Source of the DNA: Heterodontus francisci
Taxonomy: Eukaryota
Length of the DNA: 64,000 bases
Reading direction: 5' to 3'
NCBI RefSeq assembly: GCF_036365525.1
Contig: NC_090387.1
Coordinates: 76,507,300-76,571,299, forward strand
In this document: piece after piece, positions 5,160-56,662 of the stretch
Position numbering within the stretch: the stretch's first letter is position 1
Layout of the letters: the number at the start of each line of letters is the position of its first letter
Translations under genes and position numbers: made by a program
Notes under the pieces: model-generated
Databases searched by the model: none
What the model saw: only the letters and a program-made list of their open reading frames with translations
Told to the model about the DNA's origin: nothing

Positions 5160-7070
5160 ATTAGTAACAGCAGTAGGTCATTTAGCCCCTTGATCCAATT
5201 CTGTCATTGTGATATAATGGCTGATGTACAACTTAACTCCAGATATCCGCCTTTGCTCTATATCCCATAATGCCTTTGGTTAACAAAGGTCTTATCAGTC
5301 TCAAGTTCTAAATGTAACAATTGATCTAGCATCAATTGCTGTTTGCAGAGGAGAGAATAAGAACAAAGAACAAAGAACAGTCCAGCACAGGAACAGGCCA
5401 TTCGGCCCTCCAAGCCTGCGCTGATCTTGATGCCTGCCTAAACTAACACCTTCTGCACTTCCGGGGCCCATATCCCTTTTATTCCCTTCCTATTCATGTA
5501 TTTGTCAAGATGTCTCTTAAACGTCGCTGTCGTATCTGCTTCCACCACCTCCCCTGGCAGCAAGTTCCAGGCACTCACCACCCTCTGTGTAAAAAACTTG
5601 CCTCGCACATCCCCTTTAAACTTTGCCCCTCGCACCTTAAACCTATGTCCCCTAGTAACTGACTCTTCCACCCTGGGAAAAAGCTTCTGACTATCCACTC
5701 TGTCTATGCCGCTCATAACTCTGTATACCTCTATCATGTCGCCCGCCCCTCCACCTCCGTCGTTCCAGTGAAAACAATCCGAGTTTTTCCAACCTCTCCT
5801 CATAGCTAATGCCCTCCAGACCAGGCAACATCCTGGTAAACCTCCTCTGTACCCTCTCCAAAGCCTCCACGTCCTTCTGGTAGTGTGGCGACCAGAATTG
5901 CACACAATATTCTAAGTGTGGCCTAACTATGGTTCTGTACAGCTGCAACATGACTTTTTATACTCTATGCCCCGACTGATGAAGGCAAGCATGCCGTATG
6001 CCGTCTTGACTACCTTATCCACCTGCGTTGCCACATTCAGTAACCTGTGGACCTGTACACCCAGATCTCTCTGCCTGTCAATACTCCTAAGGGTTCTGCC
6101 ATTTACTGTATACCTCCCACCTGCATTGGACCTTCCAAAATGCATTACCTCACATTTGTCCGCATTAAACTCCATCTGCCATTTCTCTGCCCAGGTCTCC
6201 AACCGATCTATATCCTGTTGCATCCTCTGACAATCCTCATCATTATCCGCAACTCCACCAACCTTTGTGTCGTCCGTAAACTTACTAATCAGACCAGCTA
6301 CATTTTCCTCCAAATCATTTATATATTCTACAAACAGCAAAGGTCCCAGCACTGATCCCTGCGGAACACCACTAGTCACATCCATCCATTCAGAAAAGCA
6401 CCCATCCACTGATACCCTCTGCCTTCTATGACAGAGCCAGTTCTGTATCCATCTTGCCAGCTCACCTCTGATCCCGTGTGACTTCACCTTTTGTACCAGT
6501 CTGCCATGCTGGACCTTGTCAAAGGCTTTACTAAAGTCCATATAGATAACATTCACTGCCCTTCCTTCATCAATCATCTTCGTCACTTCCTCAAAAACCT
6601 CAATCAAATTAGTAAGTTCCAAACATCTTTTTTTTGTGTGTGAGTGTTGCCTAACTTCTCTCCTGAAAGACCTGGTTCTAATTTTTGGACTATGACCCCT
6701 TGTCCTAGACTCCACAGCCGTTGGAAATAGTTATTCTCTGAGCTCTTTGTTGCACTCATCTCGAAAACTTGGATCAAATTACCCTTTAATGGTCTAAATT
6801 TCAGGAATACAAATCTATTTTGTGTAATTTAACCCGTAGAATCCAGGTCTTTTGGCAAATCTATGCTGCAGTCCCTCCAAGGCCATTATATTCTTCCTAA
6901 GGGGAGCTGCTCAGAACTGCTCACAGTACTCCATGTGTGGTCTATCCAGGGCTTTATACAATTGTAGCATAACTTCTGCCCCCTTGTTTTTCTGGTTGTT
7001 CAGATATAAAGATCACTATCCCATTCGCCTTTTTGAATATGTTCTGTACCTGCCCATGAAGTATTAATCT
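5160..7070 (-). mobile_element. Younger CR1 (about 5356-6615) nested in an older CR1 remnant
   Basis: ORFs 5927-6715 (MDFSKAFDKV, GVPQGSVLGPLLF, KFTDDTK) and 5691-5951 ([13 protein letters not shown]). 3' (aagaaca)n tail at 5356. Confidence 0.9.
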
Positions 7071-11925: not shown

Positions 11926-12063
11926 TTAACTTCTCTCTTTCTTTATCACGTTTACTTCAGCATACACTGCGCTCTTGTCTTGTTTAGGTTTTGATGTTTT
12001 CTTGGAATCAGCAAGCTGCAGAGCCGCGTAAGTCAGCTGGTTCTCACCGCTTCTTTGTTTAGT
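11926..12063 (-). CDS. Gene B exon 8 (terminal): tyrosine module 3 with canonical ITIM (TKQRSGENQLTYAALQLADSKKTSKPKQDKSAVYAEVNVIKKERS*)
   Basis: Acceptor acttttacag|, 138 nt ending in TAA. LTYAAL fits I/V/L/SxYxxL/V and AVYAEV is ITIM-like. Candidate ATTAAA at 11852-11857. Total CDS 1143 nt = 380 aa. Confidence 0.88.
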   Translation of the reverse strand, partial: TKQRSGENQLTYAALQLADSKKTSKPKQDKSAVYAEVNVIKKERS

Positions 12064-12988: not shown

Positions 12989-13081
12989 CTGAGCATACAC
13001 CGTACGCTGTTCCTTCTGTCGGTGTTTCGCATTGTTCCTGGTCCTGGTTTCGACAGTGGTGTAAGGAAATTCTTGTTCCGT
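12989..13081 (-). CDS. Gene B exon 7: tyrosine module 2 (TEQEFPYTTVETRTRNNAKHRQKEQRTVYAQ)
   Basis: Acceptor tattttacag|, donor CAG|gtacag, 93 nt, phase 0-0. Same two-Tyr layout as exons 6 and 8. Confidence 0.8.
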
Positions 13082-13428: not shown

Positions 13429-13539
13429 CTGGGGATAGACGGTGTGCTCTATCTCATGTCTACGTTTGGGGGGTCCTTTGTCATCTCTCAAGTTTAGAGT
13501 AGCGTAGGCGGTAAGTTGTTCACTTGGTGCTTGTCTAAC
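13429..13539 (-). CDS. Gene B exon 6: tyrosine module 1 (VRQAPSEQLTAYATLNLRDDKGPPKRRHEIEHTVYPQ)
   Basis: Acceptor tatttttacag|, donor CAG|gtaggg, 111 nt, phase 0-0. Contains TAYATL and TVYPQ. Confidence 0.85.
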
Positions 13540-14988: not shown

Positions 14989-15032
14989 CTGCTCTTCAGC
15001 CTGACCCGCTTCCGCAGAGTCTTTCTTGCTGC
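14989..15032 (-). CDS. Gene B exon 5: cytoplasmic linker (GSKKDSAEAGQAEEQ)
   Basis: Acceptor ctctttccctcag|, donor CAG|gtaggg, 44 nt, phase 1->0. Bridges the TM exon to the phase-0 tyrosine exons. Confidence 0.82.
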
Positions 15033-15647: not shown

Positions 15648-15752
15648 CATCTGATGCCTTTAATTTGAGTCTGGTCAAAATTATTATTAATAGTAAAATT
15701 GCCAGTATGCCCCCCGCACATCCAAAAATCAGCAGAAATGTATTATCAGTAC
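15648..15752 (-). CDS. Gene B exon 4: uncharged transmembrane segment
   Basis: Acceptor cctgcag|, donor G|gtaag, 105 nt, phase 1-1. (G)TDNTFLLIFGCAGGILAILLLIIILTRLKLKASD: hydrophobic span followed by a basic stop-transfer. Confidence 0.92.
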
Positions 15753-16753: not shown

Positions 16754-17047
16754 CTCGATTGACGGTGTAGCTGACGCTAGCAGGTACCAGAAGAGAGATA
16801 TGAGATGCCAGACAGGTGTAAACAACTTTCTTCGGGGCAGGTTGTGCTTCTTCCAAAAAACTGGAAACTTCATAAAGTTCTTCCGTGCTCTTGTTTTTCA
16901 CAGTTTCTATTCCGCTCAGAATTTCGACACCATCCCTTAACCAGGAGATTTCTAAATGCTCTGGATAAAAGGCAACCGTTTTACACTCGAGTTTCAGAGA
17001 AGTCGCTGAAGTTTCAACAGCAACGATTTTCAGGGGGGTCGGGGGAA
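16754..17047 (-). CDS. Gene B exon 3: C1-set Ig domain
   Basis: Acceptor ttctctgttatag|, donor G|gtacg, 294 nt, phase 1-1. (V)PPTPLKIVAVETSATSLKLECKTVAFYPEHLEISWLRDG...LYEVSSFL...YTCLASHISL...; C1 motifs LxC, FYP, W and YxCxxxH. Confidence 0.93.
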
Positions 17048-17176
17048 CTATAACAGAGAAAAAAAGTTTTTTTTTAGTTTAAAGGAACACATTCTCATTT
17101 TCTACCCTCCTTTATGCTATTACACCCCTACGGTTACAATGGTTATCGGTGCTGTCGTTCTTTAAGCTTTATGCTT

Positions 17177-17432
17177 GCAGCACAGTGGCGCCATGGTTAG
17201 CACCACAGCCTCAGCGACCCGGGTTCAATTCCGGGTCCTGCCTGTGTGACGTTTGCAAGTTCTCCCTGTGGCCGCGTGGGTTTTCGCCAGGTGCTCCGGT
17301 TTCCTCCCACAGCCAAAAACTTGCAGGTTGATAGATAAATTGGCTCTAGTATGGGAAGGTGGAGATGGGATTAATGTAAGATTAGTATTGATGGTGTGCC
17401 GAAGGGCCTGTTTCACTGCTGTATCTCTAAAT
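17177..17432 (+). mobile_element. tRNA-derived V-SINE (HE1-like)
   Basis: tRNA-like head (gggttcaattcc B box), V-domain core ctccggtttcctcccacagccaaa and a CR1-like tail. Other copies at 21765-22095 (-) and 46580-46810 (+). Confidence 0.75.
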
Positions 17433-19130
17433 AAAAAAATAGATTGTTGTAAGGCACACAGCAAAATGACGAAATGTATTGCAAACGATGCACAAAGAGG
17501 TTGCAATTAGGGAAGCAGATGCCACTGCTCTGAATGGAAGTATCAGATCCTGGCGCGGGATTGGGGTTAGCAGTAATGATCCCAAATGAGATTCCTGTCC
17601 GAATATATCGGAGTGAGCGCAACCAGTTCACACGAACAGCGGAATCGTCTCTCCTTATACTGTAAGAATCATTGCTGTACTAAATATTTTGTGTGTTTAT
17701 TTCAAAACTGATCGTTTTTCGAATAGTTCATATATTTGAAAACATATTTTATTTCAGTATTATTCAGAAGATGATGTGTGTAATCAAAACATCTCTGATG
17801 TCGATATTGAATCCAGACAGGATGTTTTTATATGTGTAGATTAGAATTCGTGCATTCCAACATTTCAGCGTCTGTGGTGGAGATTTCAGATCGTGCAGCT
17901 TTCATCTAGGGAACTTTCTCTAGAGGGGGAACCGAGGGCTGAAACATTTTTCATCTAATTTAATAATTAGGGACATTATTAACTTGCAAAATTATATTAG
18001 CCTTTATTCCCAACAAAGGCTCAGAATTTCTCTTTTACCATGGATCTGCTTTAGAGATAATATGCAATGCAGTAGAATTTCAGTGGAGGAGGGCAGTGTT
18101 CTTTTGATCTCTTGCCGTAATTTCTGTCTGGGGTTTGGGGCGTGTAAGTGGAAATCATGAAGTACAAATACCGGAGCCCAGGCTTTTACTCAAATGTTCG
18201 GTGATATCCTTCCAGTATTTGACGGGTTGACAGCGTTTAAAAGAAAGTCCAATTGACGTAAGACAGGGGTTCAAACACGGGCATTGGGTAGCTTCACTGT
18301 TCTTCAAGCTGGGCTGGAATCCAGCATTGAGGGCAGGATCAACACCTCCCTTCTCACTAGGTCGTAGGTTTCATTTATGAAAAGAGTTTGGTAGCTCAAG
18401 CAAGTTATCAATGGACACAAGTGCACAGCATAAACTGTGGACAGAGGAACAGGAGTAGGCCATTCATTTAGATTATGATTGATTCTTACACTAACTCCAT
18501 TTTCCCGACTTAATTCCTTTCCTTTGATACCCATACCTAACAAAAATCTGTCCAACTCAAATATCGGACAATTTGGTATAGAAAGTATGAGGTGGCAATT
18601 TTGAGCAATGGAAATTTATCTGGTGCGAGAAATATTTACGGCGGTGGTAGGAAAGTGTTCACCTGAGTTTGTGACCTTGTCGGGGCGGATTAGATGGTCT
18701 TTAATGTTGTATAAAAGACTTGACCTAGGAGGTGTTAAAATTGTTCCCATTGTCGCACTTTGGCACCGTTATTTTGGTGAGAAGGAACCTGGCCTACTTA
18801 TACTATTGATTAATTTCAAACTAAGATTTAAACATTTTTTTCACTCTCTTGGCTTAATAACAATTGTACCTGCACCAAAAGCACTCATTGAGTGAAAACA
18901 CTTTGGAATGTTCTGCGATGTTGTGAGGACAATGAGCGGGTGAAATTGGTCTTAGACAGTAGCGCAAAACGGACGATAGCGAATCGGCAGTCGTTGTACA
19001 CCGGGGTCAATGGAAAAGAAAATCCCGAGATGTGTAAAACGAATTTGTTGTCAGCAAGTTTTCTTCCAGTGAAATTACATATATTGCACACAGCTGAAAA
19101 AGCCCCACTCCCTGGTACAATGACACTTAC

Positions 19131-19433
19131 CGTACACAGTAAGCTGGGAACCACTTCCATCTCCAATAGATTCTTGATGTTTTACTTTACAGTAATACAT
19201 TCCGGAGTCTGCAACACTCGCATTCAGAACATCAAATGAACTACTTCCCTTTTTTACATTAAATCGCTTTCTGCTGTCTGGTTTCAGAAACGATCCCTCG
19301 CCGCGTTTCCACCAATAAACATCTGGAATATCTTGAAATAGGGGAAATGTACAGAACATGGAAGCATTCGCACCTCTGGCAACCTTCAAGAATTTAGGAA
19401 ACTGTTCCACTTTGTTCGAAGTTACTTCAGCGG
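19131..19433 (-). CDS. Gene B exon 2: V-set Ig domain with germline-joined J-like G strand
   Basis: Acceptor ttttctaatag|, donor G|gtaag, 303 nt, phase 1-1. AEVTSNKVEQFPKFLKVARGANASMFCTFPLFQDIPDVYWWKRGEGSFLKPDSRKRFNVKKGSSSFDVLNASVADSGMYYCKVKHQESIGDGSGSQLTVY. Has the B-strand Cys, C-strand Trp, DSGxYYC and GxGSxLxV. Confidence 0.95.
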
Positions 19434-19622: not shown

Positions 19623-19677
19623 CTGGCCAAACCATGCCCAAAAGAGCCATGTACTGAACTGAAGCTCTCACCGACAT
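19623..19677 (-). CDS. Gene B exon 1: signal peptide (MSVRASVQYMALLGMVWP)
   Basis: ATG at 19677, 18 codons + 1 nt, donor CCAG|gtacct. Phase 1 matches the V exon about 190 nt downstream. Confidence 0.85.
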
Positions 19678-22359: not shown

Positions 22360-23120
22360 GAACACGAACATACATACAAGCATTTGAATTAGGAGCAGGA
22401 GCAGGCCATTCAGCCCCTCAAGCCTGCTCTGCCATTTGATAAGATCATAGCTGATCTGATTCTGGCCTGAACTCTACTTTCTTGTCTACTCACTATACCC
22501 TTTGATTCCCTTGTCAATCAAGAATCTATCTAACTTAGCCTTAAAAATATTCAATGACCCTGCATTGGGGAAGAGAATTCCACAGGCTAATGACCCTCGG
22601 AGAGAAGAAAATTCATATCTCCCTCTTAAATGGAAGACCCCCTATTTTTAAACTGTGTCCCCTCGTTCCAATGTCTCCCACAAGGGGAATCATCCTCTCA
22701 GCATCCACCCTGTCAAGTCCTCTCAGGATCTTATATGTTTCAATAAGATCACCTCTCATTCTTCTAAACTCTAATGTATACAGGCTCGACCTGTCCAACC
22801 TTTCCTCATAAGATAACCACTTCATGCCTGGAATCAGTCGAATGAACCTTCTCTGAACTGCCTCTAATGCAATTATATCCCTTCTTAAATAAGGAGACCA
22901 AAACTTTACACAGTACTCCAGATGTGGTCTCACCAACACCCTGTATAACTGTAGCAAAACCTCCCTACTTTTATACTCAATTCCCACTGCAATAAATGAG
23001 AACATTCTATTTACTTTCCTAATCACTTGCTGCATCTGCATCCTAACAATTTGCGATTCATGTGCCCGGACAGCTTCTGTACCACAGAGTTCTTCCATCG
23101 CTCGCCATTTAAAAATATAC
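22360..23120 (-). mobile_element. CR1 3' fragment
   Basis: ORF 22613-23098 contains [15 protein letters not shown]...RGDLIETYKIL. Confidence 0.85.
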
Positions 23121-24099
23121 TGCTGTTATTCCTGTAGAGATTTACCATGAAGAACTCCGATGGCCATTGCTGGAGCAGGGGCGAAGCTCCACAACACCAG
23201 CCTGAGTGAGTATCGCAGTTGTTTGCGATGTTTCTCGTGATTGCTACTGAAATTCTGAAGGGAAGAACAAAGCTGCATGGTATTGTCTATTCGGAAATGG
23301 GTAGTGGGTTACTAAACAGAGAAAAGAACAAATATAGGCCAGAGATCAAGAATATCTCATGCAACAGAGAATTGGATTAATGAAAAAAATCCTGAATGTT
23401 GGAAACATGAATTTAAATCTAAAGTATTGGAAGTACATTAATGACCTCCCAGCATCTGTAAAAAAAAAAGTCGAGTCACAGCAGGGTTGGCAACTGCAGT
23501 TTGATGCATTCCTGGAGATTCGATCTTGTGATGTTGCTCATGTGATGTTTAATCACATAGGAACAAGAGTCAGCTATGTAGCTGTTCCAGCATGTTCTGC
23601 CATTCAGTGAGATCATGTCTGATCTGTAACCTAACACCTTATACCTGACGTTTGATCACGTGACACTGGCCCACTGTTTGTAGATGTTATTGCATTTACG
23701 TTAGTTGAGTTTCTTACTACCACCAAGCCCTGAATAAAATATTTGTTTTTTTTATTTTATAGTGAGATGGATATTGTAATTCATAAATCAAAGAAAGCAC
23801 TCACAAGAATAGAAAGATTTAAGAGTCAAGAATTTTAAAATAAAAACTGCTCTTTGTGATGTTTCTACTGTGTCAACCGCAATAAAAAACATCAAGTAAA
23901 TATTGTTAATTCAACAATAATATCATTAATATAAGTAACGTCTCACTAAAGTTCTCATACAATTTTATGGCGTTTTACACACATAGCAAGTTAGAACAGC
24001 AATAAATAAAACAAAATCTAATTTAATTCACTAAGTCCCACACCCCACTGCTGAGACCCAGCTTCTGGAGTCAGAGGCTCAGTTCTCAGTTCAACAACA

Positions 24100-35631: not shown

Positions 35632-35750
35632 TCACCTTTCACAGTACCTCCGCTTAAAATAATTCCCAACGATGACTATCAGCACCATTATTATCAATAT
35701 ACCCACTAACTGCCGAGACACCAAAAAGAGAGTAGCGACGTTAACAGCAC
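35632..35750 (-). CDS. Gene A exon 4: Arg-containing TM and short tail (GAVNVATLFLVSRQLVGILIIMVLIVIVGNYFKRRYCER*), non-canonical acceptor
   Basis: The exon start GT GCT GTT AAC aligns with gene B GT ACT GAT AAT, but the intron ends tttgtcg instead of AG. Read-through stops at TGA 35634-35632, and an AG|gtgag donor is present at 35636. Confidence 0.65.
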
Positions 35751-36056: not shown

Positions 36057-36356
36057 CTTCCAAGTTGTAACTGACATTGGCTGGAGTCTCAAGGGAGACA
36101 TGAGATACTTGGCAGCTGTATGTAGCTCCACTGTAGGATAGCGTCGTATCTTTTAAAGTGCTGGAAATCTCATACAGTCCCACTCTGGTTTGCTGTTTGG
36201 TAGTATTGATCCCGGTTACAATTTTTGCATTGTTCTTATACCAAGTCACATTGAGATCTTCAGGGTAAAATTTAGCTGTTTTACACAGGAGAATTGGAGA
36301 AGTGGACGGACGGAATTCAGACTCAACTAAGTCGATCCTCAGAGGAGTGGGCGGAA
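36057..36356 (-). CDS. Gene A exon 3: C1-set Ig domain
   Basis: Acceptor cttttcctcccaag|, donor G|gtatga, 300 nt, phase 1-1. (V)PPTPLRIDLVESEFRPSTSPILLCKTAKFYPEDLNVTWYKNNAKIVTGINTTKQQTRVGLYEISSTLKDTTLSYSGATYSCQVSHVSLETPANVSYNLE. Confidence 0.93.
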
Positions 36357-39125: not shown

Positions 39126-39440
39126 CGGCCACAAGGAGCTCTGAGCCGGTTCCATTCCCAAACATTCCTCCCCGGCAGTACACGGAGCAGTAATAGCGGC
39201 CAGAATCTTTGAAGCTTACATTCAAGAGATGGATGGCGGCTCCTCCTTTTTTCAGAAGTTTGTATTGTCTGTTGCTCGCTTCTCCGTCGTTCAAGAACTC
39301 ATCATCACCATGTCGCCACCACTGAACCTTTACATCTGATTCCTCTTGAAAGACGGGGAATGTGCAGTAGAAGGTGATGTTTGCTCCTCTGAGCGCAACT
39401 TTGATTGGAGGGATTTGGCCGACTGTGGATTCCCCAACAA
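39126..39440 (-). CDS. Gene A exon 2: V-set Ig domain with germline-joined J-like segment (FGNGTGSELLV)
   Basis: Acceptor tctgatag|, donor G|gtaag, 315 nt, open. VGESTVGQIPPIKVALRGANITFYCTFPVFQEESDVKVQWWRHGDDEFLNDGEASNRQYKLLKKGGAAIHLLNVSFKDSGRYYCSVYCRGGMFGNGTGSELLVA. Roughly 40% identical by eye to the gene B V domain. Confidence 0.94.
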
Positions 39441-39612: not shown

Positions 39613-39652
39613 CGTTGTGTGTAATCAACAGGATCAGTATACTTGGTAGCAT
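39613..39652 (-). CDS. Gene A exon 1: signal peptide (MLPSILILLITHN)
   Basis: ATG at 39652, 13 codons + 1 nt, donor G|gtattt, phase 1. TATA-like sequence about 90 nt upstream. Confidence 0.82.
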
Positions 39653-44570: not shown

Positions 44571-47500
44571 GGGAGGTGGTGGCGTAGTGGTATCATCACT
44601 AGACTAGTGACCCAGGGTATTTCTCTGGGGACCAGGGTTCGAATCCCACCACAGTAGAAGGTGGAATTTGAATTCAATTAATAAATCTGGAATTAAAAGC
44701 TAGTCTAAAGATGATACCACTACGCCACTGCCTAATGATGGCCATGAAGCCATTGTTGATTGTTATAAAAACCCATCAGGTTTACTAAATGCCCTTTAGT
44801 TAAGGAAATCTGCTTTCCTTACCTGGTCTGGCCTACATGTGACTCCAGACCCACAACAATGTGGTTGACTCCTAAATGGCCGAGCAATTCACTCAGTTGT
44901 ATCCAACTGCTACGAAGTCAATGAACCTGGACGGACAACCCGGCATCGACCTAGGCACGGGAAACAACAAAGGCAAACCCAGTCCTGTCGATCCTGCATA
45001 GTCCTTCCTACTAACATCTGGGGGCTTGTGCCAAAGTTGGAGAGCTGTCCCACGGTCTAGTCAAGCAACAACCTGATATAGTCACTGCCATCACCATCCC
45101 CGGGTATGTCCTGTCCCACTGGCAGGACAGACCCAGAAGAGGTGGTGGCACAGTGGGATACAGTTGGGAGGGAATGTGCACAACATTGACTCCGGACCCC
45201 ATGAAGTCTCATGGTATCAAGGCAAACATGGGCATGGAAACCTGCTGCTGATTACCACCCTCCCTCAGTTCATGAATCAGTAGTCCTCCATGTTCATCAC
45301 CACTTGGAGAAAGCACTGAGGGTGACAAGGGCACAGAATGTATTCTAGGTGGGGAACTTCAATGTCCATCACCAAGAGTGGCTCGGTAGCAGCACTATTG
45401 ACTGAGCTGGCCAAGTCGTAAGGACGTAACTGCTAGACTGGGTCTGCAGCAGGTGATGAGGGAACCAATAACAGGGAAAAGCATACTTGACCTCGTCCTC
45501 ACCCATCTGCTTGCGGCAGATGCATCTGTCCATGACAGTATTGGTAGGAGTGATCACCACACAGTCCTTCTGGAGTCGAAGTCCCACCTTCATATTGAGG
45601 ATACCCTCCAGCATGTTGTGTGGCACTACCACCATGCGAAATGGGATAGCTTTTGAACAGATCTAGCAAGGCAAAACTGGGCATCCATGAGGCACTGTGG
45701 GCCACTAACAGCAGGAGAATTGTACTCAACCACAATCTGTAACCTCATGGCCCGGCATATCCCCCATTGTACCATTACCGTCAAGCCAGGGGACCAACCC
45801 TAGTTCAATGATGAGCGCAGGAGGGCATGCCAGGAGCAGCACCAGGCATACCTCAAAATGAGATATCAAGCTGGTGAAGCGACAACACAGGACTACTTGC
45901 ATGCCAAATTGCGTAAGCAGCATTGTATAGGCAGAGTTAAGCAGTCCCAAACCCAATGAATCAGATCTAAGTTCTGCCAGATCCAGCCATGAATGGTGGT
46001 GGATAATTAAACAACTAACTGGAGGAGGTGGCTCCACAAATATCCCCATCCTCAATGATGGGGGAGCCCAGCACATCAGAGTGAAAGATAAGGCTGAAAC
46101 ATTTGCAAAAATCTTCAGCCAGAAGTGCGGAGTTGATGATCCATCTTGGCCTCCTCCCGGAGTCCCCAGCATCAAAGATGCCAGACTTCTGCCAATTCGA
46201 TTCACTCTGCGTGGTATAAAAAAACGACCAAAGACACTGGATACTGCAAAGGCTATGGGCCCTGACAATATTCCGGCAATAGTACTGAAGACCTGTGCTC
46301 CAGAAGTTGCTGTGCCCCTAGCCAAGCTATTTCAGTACAGCTACAACACTGGCATCTACCCGGCAAAGTGGAAAATTGCCCAGGTATGTCAAGTACACAA
46401 AAAACAGGACAAGTCCAACCTGGCCAATTACTGCCCCATCAATCTACTCTCAATCATTAGTAAATTGATGGAAGGTGTCATCAACAGTGCTATCATGTGG
46501 CACTTGCCTAGCAATAACCTGCTCAGTGACGCTCAGATTGTGTTCAGGCAGGGCCACTCTGCTCCTGACCTCATTACAGCCGGGTGCTCCAGTTTCTTCC
46601 CACAGCCAAAGACTTGCAGGTTGATAGGTAAATTGGCCATTGTAAATTGTCCCTAGTGTAGGTACGTGGTAGGAGAATGGTGGGGATGTGGTAGAGAATA
46701 TGGGATTAATGTAGGATTAGTATAAATGGGTGGTTGTTGGTTGACACAGACTGAGTGGGCCGAAGGGCCTGTTTCAGTGCTGTATCTATCTATATCTATA
46801 TCTATATCTAAAACAGCTGAACTCCAGAGTTGAGGTGAGAGTTACTGACATCAAGGCAGCAGTTTACCGAGTATGGCATGAAGGAGCCCTAGCAAAACTG
46901 AAGTCAATGGGAATCAGTGGGAAAACTCTCCACTGATTGGAGTCATACCTAGCACAAAGGAAGATGGTTGTGGTCATTGGAGGTCAATCATCTCAGCTCC
47001 AGGACATTACTGCAGGAGTTCCAAAGGGTAGTATCCTAGGCCCAACCATCTTCAGCTGCTTCATCAATGACCTTCCTTCAATCATAAGGTCACAAGTGGG
47101 GATGTTTGCTGATGATTGCACAATGTTCAGCACCATTCGCGACTCCTCAGATATTGAAGCAGTCTGTGTAGAAATGCAACAAGACCTGGACAATATCCAG
47201 GCTTGGGCTGATAAGTGGCAAGTAACATTCGCGCCACACAAGTGCAAGGCAATAGCCATCTCCAACAAGGGAGAATCGAACCATCTCCCCTTGATATTCA
47301 ATGGTATTACCATCACTGAATTCCCCCACTATCAACATCCTCGGGGTTACTGTTGACCAGAAACTGAACTGGAGTAGCCATATAAATACCATGGCTACAA
47401 CAGCAGGTCCGAGGTAGGAATCTTGAGGCGGGTAATTCACCTCCTAACTCCCCAAAGGCACAAATCAAGAGTGTGTTGGAATACTCTCCACTTGCCTGGA

Positions 47501-47985
47501 TGGGTGCAGCTTCAACAACACTCAAGAAGCTCGACACCACCCAGGACAAAGCAGCCCATTTGATCGACACACCATCTACAAACGTTCACTCCCTCCACCA
47601 CCGATGCACAGTGCAGCTGTGGGTACCATCTACAAGATGCTCTGCAGCAACGCACCAAGGCTCCTTAGACAGCACCTTCCAAACCTGCGATCACTACCAA
47701 CCTGAAGGACAAGGGCAGCAAATGCATGGGAAGACCACCACCTGTAAGATCCCCTCCACATCACACACCATCCTGGCTTGGAACAATATCACCGTTCCTT
47801 CACTGTCACTGTGTCAAAATCTTGGAACACCCTGCCGAACAGCACAGTGGGTATCCCTACCTCACATGGACTGCAGCGGTTCAAGAGGGCAGCTCACCAC
47901 CACCTTCTCAAAGGGCAATTAGGGATGGACAATAAATGCTGGCATAGACAGCGATGCCCACATCTCATGAATGAATTTTAAAAAG
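44571..47985 (+). mobile_element. APE-RT LINE with a tRNA-like 5' head, nested in CR1 ORF1
   Basis: A box TGGCGTAGTGG at 44580-44590 and B box GGTTCGAATCC at 44636-44646. APE remnants (ILDLVLT, SDHH), RT (KAMGPDNI, GVPKGSILGP, FADD). Interrupted by a V-SINE at 46580-46810. Confidence 0.8.
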
Positions 47986-49720: not shown

Positions 49721-50342
49721 TGTTGACCCTTTTTCTCTGTAGGGTATCAACTGACGTGACAGACAAAGATACACTAAAACCAAAGTCTCGTATAACTTCA
49801 CTTTATTAGTACTAAAATCACTTAAAGCATACAAATGCTTACAACAGTTTTATTTAGACACCAAATAAGTACAAGGCTCACTTCTTGTACAAGATACTAC
49901 CCGTCAACACAGAGGTGATCAGTCTCTTGTCACGGTTGATCACTGAGCCTCCAGACTTAGGGTCCTGCCTTTGAGAGTTGTTCCTGGGTTCTCGCCGAGA
50001 ATACCCTCAAGTGTTAACCCTTATATATTCTTTGAAGGCTCCTTGCTCAACCTATGACTCACATGATCTTGTTTTGCACAAATCTTCAAGCATTATCTCA
50101 TCTTTGGCAAGCCATGTAGCAACCTGGACAGAAGTTGTTTACAATAACCACCATTCGTTCCCCTATTTCTGTTCCTCTTTTATCTATTCTTGTTCAATAC
50201 TCTTATCTAATGGTCACATATCTCTAACCACAAGCTTCAACATGTCTGTTAGCTTACTTCAGCAAGTTCTGCACTTATCTTCAGCTGCCTTGGAGCATGC
50301 TGGGTATAAAGCGTTATTTGACCAACTTTTCAAGAGCCTACA
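49721..50342 (-). mobile_element. Solo LTR inside CR1 ORF2
   Basis: TG...CA termini with a perfect 4-bp TSD CTTG (49717-49720 and 50343-50346). Minus-strand AATAAA at 49802-49807. Confidence 0.85.
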
Positions 50343-53300
50343 CTTGAAAGTTGATAAATCACCAGGGCCGGATGAAATCTACCCCATACAGTTAAAAGAA
50401 GCAAGAGAGGAAATAGCGGAAGGTCTGACAATCATTTTCAAGTCCTCACTCGATACAGATGTGGTGCCAGAGAATTGGAGAACTACTAACATTGTACCTC
50501 TGTTTAAAAAGGGAGTGAGGGATAGACCAAATAATAACAGGCCAGTCAGTCTAACCTCAGTAGTGGACAAATTATTGGAATCTATTCTGAGAGATAGGAT
50601 AAACTGTCACTTAGAAAGGCACAAGTTAATCAAGGATAGTCGGCATGGATCTGTTAAGGGGAAATCTTATTTGACCAACTTGATCGAGTTTCTGAAGAAG
50701 TAACAAGGAAGGTAGATGAGCATAGTGCAGTTGATGTGGTCTACATGGATTTTAGCAAGGCTTTTGACAAGGTCCCACATGGCAGACTGGTTAAAAAATA
50801 AAATCTCATTGGATCCTGGGAAATACAGCAAGGTGGATGGAAAATTGTCTCAGTGGCAGGAAACAAAGGGTAATTGTTAACGTGTGTTTTTGTGACTGGA
50901 GAGCTGTTTCCAGTGGTGTTTTGCAGGGCTCAGTACTGGGCCCCCTGGTTTTTGTGGTGTATATTAAAGATTTGGACGTAAATGCAGGGGGCATGATCAA
51001 GAAGTTTGCAGATGATACAAAGATTGGCCGTGTGGTAGATAGTGAGCAGGATAGCTGCAGGCTGCAGGAAGATATTTGATGATCTGATCAGATGGGCAAA
51101 AAAGTGGCAAATGGAATTCAATCCAGAAAACTGTGAGGTGATGCATTTGGGGAGGTCAAACAAGGCAAAGGAATAAATGATGAATGGGAAAATACTGAGA
51201 AGTGTAGAGGAAGTGAGGGGCCTTTTAGTAAATGTCCACAGATCCATGAAGGTAGCAGGACAGGTAGATAAGGTGGTTAAGAAGGCATATGAAATCCTTT
51301 CCTTTATTAGCCTAGGTAGTGAATACAAGAGCAAGGAGGTTATGATGGAACTGTATAATTCATTGGTTAGGCCACAACTTGAGTAGTGTGTGCAGTTCTG
51401 GTCACCTCCTTACAGAAAGGATGTAATTGCACTGGAGAGGGTACAGATGAGATTTACGAGGATGCTGCCAGGACTGGAAAAATGCAGCTATGAGGAAAAA
51501 TTGGATAAGCTGGGGATGTGCTCATTGAAAAAGAGAAGGCTGAGGGGAGATCTGATTGAAATGTGCAAAACTGTGAGGGGCCTGGATAGAGTGGAGGTGA
51601 AGGACCTATTCACCTGAGCAGAGAGGTCAGTGACTAGGGAGCATAGGTGATTGGTAGAAAAATTAGAGGGGAGATGAGGAAATACTTTTTCACCCAGAGG
51701 GTGTTGGGGGTCTGGAACTCACTGCCTGAAAGGATGGTTGAGGCAGAAACCCTCAACTCATTCAAAAGAAGTCTGGATATGCACCTCAAGTGCCATAATC
51801 TGCAGGGCCGTGGACCAAATGTTGAAATGTGGTATTAGAATGGGTGGATCTTTTTCAGCCGACACAGACACAATGGGCCGAGTGGCCTTTTTCTGTGCCT
51901 TAAACTTTCTATGTTTTCATGATTCTATGATTTACTAGTTTCTCACATTTGAAAAAATATTTTGCTTTTCTATTCTTCATACCCAAGTCGATACTTAATT
52001 ACACTCCATCTGCTATGTTCTTGCCCAATCACCTAACTGGTGTATATCCTTTTGCAGCCTCTTTTCATCGTCCTCAAAGATTACTGTCCCACCTAGCTTT
52101 TTATTATAAAGAACATGTGACATATTACACTCAGTCCCCTCATCTAAGTGACTAATATAGATTGTAAATGGCTGAGGCCCAAGCACTGATCCTTGTGACA
52201 CTCCACTATTTGCAGCCTGCTAATCTGAAAATGACCTGTTTAATCCTATTCTCTGTTTCCATCCATTAGACGATTCTAAATCCATGCTAATATAGTATCC
52301 CCAATCCCAAACCCTAATCTTGTGTAACAACCTCTTGTGTGACACCTGACTGAATGCTTCTGAAAATCCAAATATACCAGATCCACTGGTTTACCCTTAT
52401 TTACCCTGTCAGTTACATCCTCAAAAAACTCTAGATTTGTCAACATGATTTCCCTTTCATAAAACTGTATTGACTCTGCCTAACAATATTATGATTTTCT
52501 GAGTGCCCTGTTACCATGTCCCTTATAATAGATTCTAGCAATTTCCCTACTAATGATGTCAGGCTAACTCACCTATAGTTCCCTGTTTTCTTTCTCCCTT
52601 CTTTATGGACAGCTAGGTTACAGTTGCCACCTCCTAATCTCCTAGGATAGTTCTAGGGAATTCTAGAAGATCAAAACCAATGCATCCACTTTCTCTGCAG
52701 CCATCTCTTTTAAAACTCTAGGATGTAGGCCAACAGTTCCATGGGATCTGTCAGCTTTTAGTCTCATTTATTTCTCTTTCACTTTACTAATATTTATTAC
52801 TTTAATGTTCTCACTCTCACTAGGCCCATAGTTCCCCACTATTTCTGCTATGCTCTTTGTATATTCTACTGTAAAGGTAGATACAATACATTTATTTAAT
52901 ACCTCTGCCATTTCCTTATTCCCCATTATAATTTTTCCTGTTGTTGTCTCTAAGGGAACCATGCTTACTTTTGCTAATCTCTTCCAATATTTTATGTACT
53001 TGCAAAAGATTTTAGTCTGTTTTTATATTTTTTTCTAGTTTACTCTCATATTTTATTTCCTCCTTCATTATCAATTTCTGGTCATTCCCCCAATCTGAGG
53101 CTTACTACCATTTTTGGCAACACTGTAAACCTTTTCTTTTAATCTAATACTATCCTTAACTTTTCTAGTTATACACAGTTCAGCCACTTTTCCAGTGGAG
53201 ATTTTATTCTTCAAGGGATTGTATATTTGTTGAAAATAATAAATTATTTCTTCAAAATGTTTTTCGTTGCTCATCTACTGTCATATATTTTAAGCTCATT

Positions 53301-54129: not shown

Positions 54130-56662
54130 AAGGTCAGGACAGAGAGCGTAAGCCACAGACTGAAAAGGAAGGCAAGAAAGCAAGAAATGGAGACTGGAAA
54201 TATAAGTAATCAGGACCAGAAATGGAAAAGATATAGGCTGGAATTTTGAGGGGTATATGACATTCAAGAAGAATAGAAAGCTAGGTAAGGTGAAGGGATA
54301 ACACTGTTAATCAGGGATGGCATTGGTGCAATACTTAGAGATGACCTTGGTTCAGGAGATCAGGATGCAGAATCAGTTTGGGTGGCGATGAGGAATAATA
54401 GGGGAAAGAAGTCACTAGTGGGAGTGGTCTAAGGGCTCCCTAACAGTAAGCACAATGTATGATGAAGTCTGCAAGAAGAAATATTAGGTGCCTGTGATAA
54501 AGGGATGGCAATAATCATGGGTGATTTTAATCTACATATAAACTGGAAAAATCAGATTGGCAATAGTAGTCTGGATGACGAGTAAATAGAATACTTTTGA
54601 GATAGTTTCTTAGAGCAGCAGATTCTGGAACCAGCCAGACAGCAGGTTATATTAGACTTGGTATTGTGTAATGTGACAGGATTAATTAATGATTTCAGAG
54701 TAAAGGCACCTCTAGGTAGCAACGACCGCAATATGATTGAATTTTACATCCAATTTGAAAGAGAGAGGAGTGTGTCTAAGATGAGTATTTTAAACTTAAA
54801 TGAGGGCAACTATGTGGACATAAAATCTGAGCTAGCTGAAGTGAACAGGGTTACTAGGCTAGAAGATAGATCAATAGAGAAGCAGTGGCAGACATTTAAG
54901 GGGATATTTCAGAATACACAAAATAAGTATATTCCTGCTGTAAAGAAAAATTCTAAGGGGAAGACCCACTATCCGTGGCTAACTAAAGAAGTTAAGGAAA
55001 GCATCAAACTTAAGGAAAAAGAATATAATTTTGCAAAGATGAGTGGCAGGTCAGATGATTGGTCAGAATATAAGAATGGCAGAGAATGACTAAAAGGTTA
55101 ATCAGCAGAAAGAAATTAGAGTATGAAAGGAAGCTAGCTGGAAATGTAAAAACAGATAGCAAGAGTTTCTACAGGTATTTGAAAAGGAAAAGAGTAAGTA
55201 AAGTGAGTGTTGGTCTTCTAGAGAGTGAGAATGTGGAGTTAATAGTAGATAATAAGGAAATGTTAGATGAAATGAACAAATATTTTGCTTCTGTCTTCAC
55301 TATAGAGGACACAAAAACATTCCAGTAATAGCTATAAATCAGGACGTGGAGGGAAGAGAGGAACTTAGTGAAATTACAATCACCAGGGAGGCGGTACTGA
55401 GCAAACTGATGGAGCTGCAGATTGACAAGTCCCCGGGTCCTGATGAACTTCATCCTAGGGTCTTTAAAGAGGTGGCTAATGAGGTAGTAGATGTGTTGGT
55501 GTTAATTTTTCAAAATTCATTAGATTCTGGAAAGGTTTCATCAAACTGGAAAGTAGAAAATATAACCCCTCTATTGAAGAAGTGGGGAGGCCAATTGGCT
55601 TGACATCTATCATGGGCAAGATATTAGAATCAATCATTAAGGAAATTATAGCTGGGCACATAGAAAAACTCAAGGTAATCAGGAATATTCAGAATGGTTT
55701 TGTGAAAGGGCAATCATATTTAACCAACTCATTGGAGTTCTTTGAAGGAGTAACATGCGCTGTGGATAAAGGGGAGCCCATTGACATACTGTACTTGGAT
55801 TTCCAGAAGGCATTTGACAAGGTGCCACATAAAAGGTTATTGCTCAAAATAGGAACTCATGGTGTAGCGGGTACATATTAGCATGGATAGAAGCAGCTGG
55901 CTGGCAGAAAACAGAGAATGTATAAATGGGTCCTTTTCTGATTGGCAATTGTGATGAGAGGAGTTCAGCAGGGGTCTGTGCTGCAGGCTCAACTTTTTGC
56001 AATTTATCAATGACATAGATGAGGGCAGCGATGGCATAGTAGCTAAATATGAAGATGAAACAAAGATAGGTAGGAAAGTATGTTGTGAAGACGACATAAG
56101 AAGGTTGCAGACCGATGCAGATAGGTTGTGAGTGGGAACAAATCTGGCAGATGGAATATAATGTGGGAAAATGTGAAGTTGTTCACTTTGGCAGGAAGAA
56201 TAAAAAAGCAGAGCATTACTTAAACAGAGAACGACCGCAGAATTCCAGGGTGCAGAGGGATCTGGCTGTTCTAGTGCACGAGTGTCAAAAAGTTAGTATG
56301 CAGGTACAGCAGGTAATTTAAAAAGTTAATGGAGTGCTATCCTTTATTACGAGAGGAATTGAAAATAAAAAGTAAGGATGTTATGCTTCAGTTATACAGG
56401 GTACTGATGAGACCACATCTCCAATACTGTGTGCAGTTTTGGTGTCCTTATTCAAGGAAGGATGTAAATGCATTGGAGGCGGTTGAGAGGCAGTTTACTA
56501 GATTGATACCTGGAATAAGTGGGTTGTCTTATGAGGAAAGGTTGGACAGACTGGGCTTGTTTTCACTGGAGTTTAGAAGACTGAGGGGAGATTGACTGAA
56601 GTATGTAAGATCCTGAAATGTCTGGACAAGGTGGATGTGGAAAGGATGTTTCCTCTTGTGGG
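54130..56662 (+). mobile_element. Degenerate CR1 ORF2 (APE-RT)
   Basis: ORFs 54658-56595 contain KSPGPDELHP, YLDFQKAFDKVPH and RPHLQYCVQFW. Confidence 0.88.

Follow-up and report, generated by a model that had tools for sequence, protein, structure and literature searches.

The described systems closest to the genes reported here, the immunoglobulin (Ig) superfamily Genes A and B, are SIRP, UrIg and UrIg2, PRARP and the tetrapod VJC1 genes, NKp30, the B7-H6/tapasin-like proteins and the germline-joined Ig light chains (IgL) of sharks. Genes A and B are found, both on the minus strand, in a window of 64,000 nucleotides of the Heterodontus francisci genome (G000:C17:76,507,300-76,571,299), the whole stretch of DNA that was analysed; Gene A is a member of a family clustered on contig C17, here called the C17 family. 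According to PMC2785349 and PMC9652883, SIRPα and SIRPβ1 resemble this family in their J-like V and C1-set domains, in a tail with paired motifs of the ITIM type (immunoreceptor tyrosine-based inhibitory motif) and in the clustering of inhibitory, activating and soluble forms; the second of these sources states that the origin of SIRP is unknown. SIRP proteins have the order V-C1-C1, with two C1 domains, whereas Gene A has one and is spliced directly onward. The activating transmembrane segment (TM) of the C17 family bears Arg near its outer end, in contrast to the Lys/DAP12 arrangement of SIRPβ1 (the Lys was seen in bat P0169), and the C17 family, unlike SIRP, comprises at least 45 V exons that are not beside NSFL1C.

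UrIg and UrIg2 of elasmobranchs also have an unsplit VJ exon followed by C1, UrIg2 being the second-best Protein Data Bank (PDB) match of the C17 family profile. UrIg2 is described in PMC12227049 as a homodimer with several C1 domains; the same source puts UrIg in the major histocompatibility complex (MHC) and UrIg2 in the Ig/T-cell receptor (TCR) αδ complex, and speaks of an active search for intact VJ-C1 genes related to the gene invaded by RAG. The C17 family, in contrast, has one C1 domain, a TM and an ITIM tail, and is located on C17 instead of C29 or C34. PRARP and the tetrapod VJC1 genes share the joined VJ and have low copy number; PRARP carries an inhibitory motif and has a V-C1 form outside birds. 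NKp30 (NCR3) combines a joined VJ-type V domain with an activating TM of the Arg type and has no C1 domain; joined-VJ exons labelled NKp30-like by likeness (L095, L100, L104 and L193) are placed on the MHC contig at G000:C29:14.8-15.4 and 31.9 Mb and form a separate group. The B7-H6/tapasin-like proteins have a V + C1 ectodomain, and B7-H6 aligns over both domains (Z 15.4), but their V domains lack a J-like GxG and form a separate starred group (96/90). One tapasin/B7-H6-like V + C1 gene is found on C17 itself, at G000:C17:44.04-44.05 Mb (L119), and is unrelated to the cluster in the trees. The germline-joined shark IgL share with the C17 family a joined VJ exon and one C1 domain, and differ from it in lacking TM and tail and in having WYxQ and FGxG.

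Gene A can be described with good confidence as a non-rearranging gene of eight exons encoding leader, VJ, C1, TM and a tail with tyrosine motifs, located in a chondrichthyan cluster and likely to be the inhibitory half of a SIRP-like family of paired receptors. Its spliced coding sequence has 1143 nt and encodes 380 aa, with GT-AG borders at all introns and four cytoplasmic exons after the TM (Table 1). The initial annotation spanned just two of these eight exons and missed the leader, the TM, the tail and the isoform in which the TM is skipped. The product ends in NCBI protein P0005 and the form lacking the TM is identical to P0001, both labelled Heterodontus francisci and both automatically named SIRPα-like. 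Contigs bridge six of the seven consecutive junctions (leader-V, V-C1, TM-exon 5, 5-6, 6-7 and 7-8) as well as the joint of C1 to exon 5 that leaves out the TM, the V-to-C1 splice being bridged in two of the three runs. These contigs come from three runs of one sample, their RNA status is a guess, no run being recorded as RNA, and the isoforms are not ranked by depth. The TM carries no charge and the ectodomain has the shape of an antibody light chain. The tail contains six tyrosines, three of them (Tyr 279, 347 and 369) in motifs that fit patterns of the ITIM or switch (ITSM) type, TAYATL, LTYAAL and AVYAEV; another motif, FPYTTV, is degenerate.

Table 1. Exons and domains of Genes A and B, with positions in the window.
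Gene	Feature	Position	Strand	Remark
A	Exon 1, encoding the leader; 18 codons and 1 nt	19623..19677	-	joint to V seen in contig
A	Exon 2, V-set domain of the joined VJ type, without RSS	19131..19433	-	
A	Exon 3, C1-set domain; 13 residues from B-strand Cys to C-strand Trp	16754..17047	-	Pfam; model of paralogue P0002
A	Exon 4, transmembrane helix without charge; one isoform omits it	15648..15752	-	in P0005, absent from P0001
A	Exon 5, cytoplasmic; 44 nt, phase 1 to 0	14989..15032	-	
A	Exon 6, cytoplasmic; Tyr279 TAYATL (ITSM/ITIM-like), Tyr302	13429..13539	-	
A	Exon 7, cytoplasmic; degenerate motifs at Tyr311 and Tyr333	12989..13081	-	
A	Exon 8, coding part; Tyr347 LTYAAL (ITIM), Tyr369 AVYAEV (ITIM-like), stop	11926..12063	-	
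B	Leader exon (predicted)	39613..39652	-	
B	Joined VJ exon, no RSS	39126..39440	-	
B	C1-set exon	36057..36356	-	
B	TM-like segment, Arg (activating) type	35636..35720	-	only in-frame AG follows the Arg; use uncertain

The V exon of Gene A ends in ...IGDGSGSQLTV and that of Gene B in ...MFGNGTGSELLV; both run through a GxGS/T G strand, and in both a phase-1 GT donor follows. The J-type G strand that had been claimed for these exons is thus present as far as the GxG is concerned, while Gene A has I in place of F/W ahead of it. The claim that heptamer-spacer-nonamer elements are missing holds more widely: none was found close to the V exon of either gene, and no recombination signal sequence (RSS) was identified within 120 nt of YxC in any of the 42 family loci analysed. 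The same scan, with the same mismatch limits, was positive after 10 rearranging Ig/TCR V exons among 20 reference loci, which gives meaning to the absence in the family. These 42 loci, from a total of 45, were analysed for RSS, GxG, C1 and TM with up to 10 kb fetched for each; GxG is present in 36 of them and a C1 exon in 38 within the fetched 10 kb or less.

The second domains score best as C1-set in Pfam (cut-off 21), with 34.7 bits and no C2-set match for Gene A, and 52.3 bits against 27.6 bits for C2-set_2 in Gene B. Gene A also has the spacing of 13 residues between Cys and Trp that PMC2785349 gives as a C1-set criterion; spacings of 11, likely artefacts of the regular expression, were disregarded. 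For the structure, the source is the AlphaFold model of a paralogue, P0002 (89% identical, pLDDT 83), which comprises two Ig domains plus a TM helix and whose domain 2 matches HLA-DP/DQ β2, IgL C and IgNAR C (Z 14.2-15.6, root-mean-square deviation 1.3-2.1 Å). SIRP is absent among the 50 structure matches listed for this model, which excludes nothing, and a single-sequence fold of the Gene A C1 domain (pLDDT 54) was discarded. Pfam scoring and structure prediction, both proposed in the initial annotation, therefore place the domain in the C1-set; its statement that the V exon is spliced to a true C1-set exon is right for the domain class in both genes and for the splice of Gene A, the splice of Gene B being a prediction. 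At the place of W-Y-x-Q in the Ig/TCR V references, the V domains of the family show W-W-K/R-x-G, and they mostly lack F/W ahead of GxG. The W-Y-x-Q and F/W-GxG residues are tied to V-V pairing. Since WYxQ is missing and F ahead of GxG mostly so, binding by a single chain, as in SIRP, rather than by a paired variable fragment is the probable mode.

The Gene A V exon used as query gave 46 matches (45 distinct) among 103 candidates, all of them on C17, at 71, 76.1-77.0, 88.4-90.8 and 92.5 Mb. The figure of 45 is a lower bound because a later SIRPα search added another V exon, L127. The TM profiles of the 42 loci comprise 27 of the uncharged type, 5 of the Arg type and 10 with no TM within the fetched 10 kb. 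One of the Arg-type loci, L037, has a V domain 90% identical to that of Gene A, and both TM types were also identified among database proteins of the family. Relatives were named from eight shark species, seven rays, skates or sawfishes and one chimaera, and pairs of the motifs LTYAAL...T/AxYAxV/L recur in those of sharks and rays. Their automatic names are SIRPα-like, B7-H6-like, tapasin-related and IgL-like. Apparently the family, which is large and seems to be expressed, is undescribed across the cartilaginous fishes and carries automatic labels alone in public databases, hidden beneath four inconsistent names. No description was found in the literature searched, a weak negative given that subscription papers were largely outside the search and that the supplements of PMC12227049 and PMC10751288 may list it; the elephant shark genome supplement (PMC3964593) does not mention SIRP, NKp30 or ITIM.

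Clustered members of this family thus have similar ectodomains, combined with an ITIM tail in some and a charged TM in others, and Gene A with its Arg-TM paralogues matches the definition of paired receptors in PMC3533184. In the mode of action proposed for ligand, signalling and cell type, the single V domain of Gene A would bind a self ligand on the cell surface through its loops, as a monomer. The tail would be phosphorylated by Src-family kinases and would then recruit SHP-1/SHP-2, damping leukocyte activation. The Arg-TM paralogues would pair with an activation-motif (ITAM) adaptor of the FcRγ/CD3ζ type and be activating, probably against pathogen mimics of the self ligand, and the TM-less form of Gene A may be a soluble decoy. 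Phosphatase recruitment and adaptor pairing we infer from the motifs only. SIRPα was the best non-titin PDB match by sequence, and the two best ESM clusters have SIRPα names. By analogy, the C17 family may be said to work like SIRP, which is not to show that it is SIRP. It would supply candidate inhibitory and activating leukocyte receptors for sharks.

Several results weigh against this description of Gene A. The joint of C1 to TM is not among the contig joints listed, and two of the six tail tyrosines are followed by Q-T once spliced, in non-canonical motifs. The family profile ranks IgA heavy chain and UrIg2 above SIRPα, and the V tree groups SIRP with the NKp30-like genes (86/78) and not with the family. 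Some TMs of the uncharged type bear Arg near their start (L045, L048 and L063), so the division into uncharged and Arg types is approximate. Finally, the ratio of nonsynonymous to synonymous substitution among the seven closest paralogues is 0.53 for V and 0.41 for C1, which gives no sign of positive selection overall; the V columns that vary most among these paralogues are near the BC and FG loops.

Some members of the cluster depart from the common form. L042/L137 (G000:C17:76.24-76.26 Mb; protein P0012) join a divergent V domain, 47% identical to that of Gene A, to a C1, TM and tail near those of Gene A, which suggests shuffling of V exons within the cluster. L041, L069 and L130 contain frameshifts or stops, which fits birth-and-death turnover, L069 being a pseudogene copy of Gene B. 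The skate protein P0026 has two near-identical C1 domains, P0059 has a family V domain, a TM and four repeated LTYAAL motifs with no C1 match, and P0082, P0107 and P0140 are further V-only inhibitory models.

The trees were built under LG+G4 without mixture, with one SIRP species, no UrIg V and no TCR C, and the chain labels of the references derive from sequence likeness. UrIg V was left out because none was found beside the C1 exons of C29: no UrIg V exon lies within 40 kb upstream of the two Ig-type C1 exons on that contig (10.57 Mb), which may themselves belong to UrIg. In the V tree (47 rows) the family forms one group (99/96) and the antigen receptors, including germline-joined IgL and IgH, another (97/88), the deeper links being unresolved. 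The C1 tree (43 rows, after removal of 4 that were redundant or short) recovers the family (93/96) and joins it to coelacanth P0167 and SIRP domain 2 (89/87), outside the Ig C group. Single-domain approximately unbiased (AU) tests of V and C1 rejected no grouping and lacked power. With V and C1 concatenated (26 rows), the best tree unites family, coelacanth and SIRP (84/59), and a clade of family, coelacanth and Ig was kept (p=0.08).

These tests bear on another possibility, which is very improbable: that the C17 genes are IgL or TCR genes, joined in the germline secondarily, to which a TM and an ITIM tail were added by capture. The V-C1 fold of the modelled paralogue does appear light-chain-like, germline-joined IgL and IgH exist in the H. 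francisci genome, and the single-domain AU tests keep a clade of family and IgL (p=0.13 and 0.12). The concatenated test, however, rejects the family with joined IgL (p=3e-44) and with all IgL (p=3e-5), the family and the antigen-receptor V domains form separate starred groups, and the family has no WYxQ and mostly no FGxG. The V domains, as the V and concatenated trees now show, do not nest among those of IgL or TCR, and the germline-joined IgL reading is largely refuted, TCR C domains not having been sampled.

The grouping with SIRP admits, tentatively, that the C17 family is the chondrichthyan orthologue of tetrapod SIRPs, one C1 domain being the older state and the cluster having moved in one lineage. 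The C1 and concatenated trees both join family, coelacanth and SIRP, the tails have paired ITIM motifs as does that of bat SIRPα P0168, and a SIRPα search of the genome, a stricter first look, gave no better candidate and none on the contig of NSFL1C, which we take to be the human neighbour of SIRP. NSFL1C is located on C16 and its flanks, 100 kb on each side, contain no V or C1 exon. Against orthology, the support is unstarred, SIRP is a long branch represented by one species, the cluster is on C17 and NSFL1C on C16, and the V tree does not join family and SIRP, though the AU test does not reject that union (p=0.38).

The C17 family is unlikely to be, or to include, the orthologue in sharks of PRARP or of the VJC1 genes of amphibians, and hence to be already described in other vertebrates. 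PMC11599192 lists PRARP among joined-VJ genes of the Ig superfamily, and PMC10751288 mentions tetrapod VJ-C1 genes. Coelacanth P0167 has V, C1 and TM with two tyrosine motifs. PRARP is, however, cited as an MHC VJ gene in PMC10751288, and the C17 cluster is not in the MHC. Among 20 proteins looked up, the full-length V-C1 ones resembling the family are all chondrichthyan or coelacanth, the four tetrapod ones being SIRP, a frog (V-C1)x2 protein, NCAM2 and FcRL; a homologue search from P0167 returned itself alone.

At G000:C10:72,644,000-72,645,700 (L124, L101 and L126) lies another VJ-C1-TM gene, separate from the family, whose J-like strand reads FTGEGTKL and whose TM-like segment contains Arg. 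In the concatenated tree it is nearer to the Ig chains than the C17 family is (95/92), and it is a candidate relative of PRARP or of an antigen-receptor precursor.

Linkage of the family to the MHC or its paralogues, which had been said to make it especially informative, was not borne out. The 64 MHC_I matches fall without exception on C29 or on small unplaced contigs, and intact PBX genes are on C8, C29, C32 and C43, which places the C17 cluster outside the MHC and its PBX-marked paralogues; a PBX match on C17 was rejected as a fragment containing a stop. The search with the MHC_II_beta family found nothing in the genome and nothing in the controls either, and is uninformative. C17 also carries GPI, large Maf, MT-MMP (74.5 Mb) and NDRG (75.8 Mb), the cluster being 0.3 Mb from NDRG and 1.6 Mb from MT-MMP. 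BBS2, an AMFR-like gene and NUDT21 directly precede the first family V exon (76.12 Mb). The AMFR-like gene has a weak Pfam match and its exon no PDB match. The human counterparts of the genes in this block are presumably on 16q and 19q12-13.1.

Contigs C16, C5 and C34 were predicted to be ohnologous to C17 before the NDRG and Maf results, and NDRG was then found on exactly C17, C16, C5 and C34 (on C34 at 15.27 Mb, among Ig clusters). MT-MMP genes are on C17, C5, C34 and the unplaced C1892, and large Maf genes on C17, C16 and C5, none being placed on C34. C17 and C34 form a pair in the NDRG quartet (97/99, 208 columns; informative sites 9 versus 4 and 3), and the MT-MMP tree agrees weakly (67/67). 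V exons of IgH and of a TCRα/δ-like kind, with RSSs, are present on C34, their chain labels being given by sequence likeness. C17 is likely a genome-duplication sister of the IgH/TCRα-δ contig. Because the closest paralogues of the NDRG and MT-MMP neighbours are on C34, with the contig of NSFL1C as a third paralogue, an ohnologous relation outside the MHC paralogon could hold for the family, SIRP and the antigen receptors.

On this basis it may be proposed, as a doubtful reading, that an ancestral VJ-C1 locus in the NDRG/MT-MMP/Maf linkage group, not in the MHC paralogon, was copied in the two genome duplications, and that the C17 cluster, the tetrapod SIRPs and the IgH/TCRα-δ complex are its surviving copies; the shark family, unsplit, would keep the ancestral form, that of a single-chain VJ-C1 signalling receptor, on the direct sister of the chromosome where RAG divided a VJ exon. 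Besides the marker genes, a clade of family and Ig survives the AU tests (V p=0.42, C1 p=0.29, and the concatenated test with coelacanth). The best concatenated tree, in contrast, parts the family from Ig (95/92) and the C10 gene is nearer Ig, immune clusters move readily, and UrIg V is not in the trees. The markers are three families only, picked after C17 was identified, and the four contigs make up about 8% of the genome. Large Maf is missing from C34, whose sole tested NDRG exon is a better match to NDRG1/3 than to NDRG2. PMC12227049 and PMC10751288 derive the Ig/TCR complex from a proto-MHC by way of UrIg/UrIg2 and PSMB5, and the main texts of both do not mention NDRG. If true, the shared locus would give SIRPs an origin 450 million years ago and be a testable alternative to the proto-MHC account of antigen-receptor origin, the position on C17 making the test one of synteny. 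As to the pre-RAG ancestor, on which the family had been held to be informative, an ITIM-type, much-expanded paired family that the best trees place nearer SIRP than Ig is a derived descendant and not a relic; it may still bear on that ancestor through the NDRG/MT-MMP paralogon.

Other V exons of the genome show further arrangements. At G000:C42:8,304,899-8,307,200 (L089) only about 2 kb separate a C1 exon from a V exon whose RSS is of the 23-spacer type; the V groups with TCRβ-like V (97/85) and the C with IgM CH4/IgW (96/88), an unusual antigen-receptor cluster. At G000:C13:120.34-120.44 Mb (L186 and L187) two joined VJ exons with a very short third complementarity-determining region and no RSS nest among rearranging IgL/TCRγ V, with no C1 exon within the fetched 10 kb. 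In the window itself, positions 5400-6800, 22600-23200, 45700-47900, 49900-51400 and 54600-56300 contain fragments of open reading frames for the reverse transcriptase/endonuclease of long interspersed nuclear elements, ordinary repeats that are presumably CR1-like.

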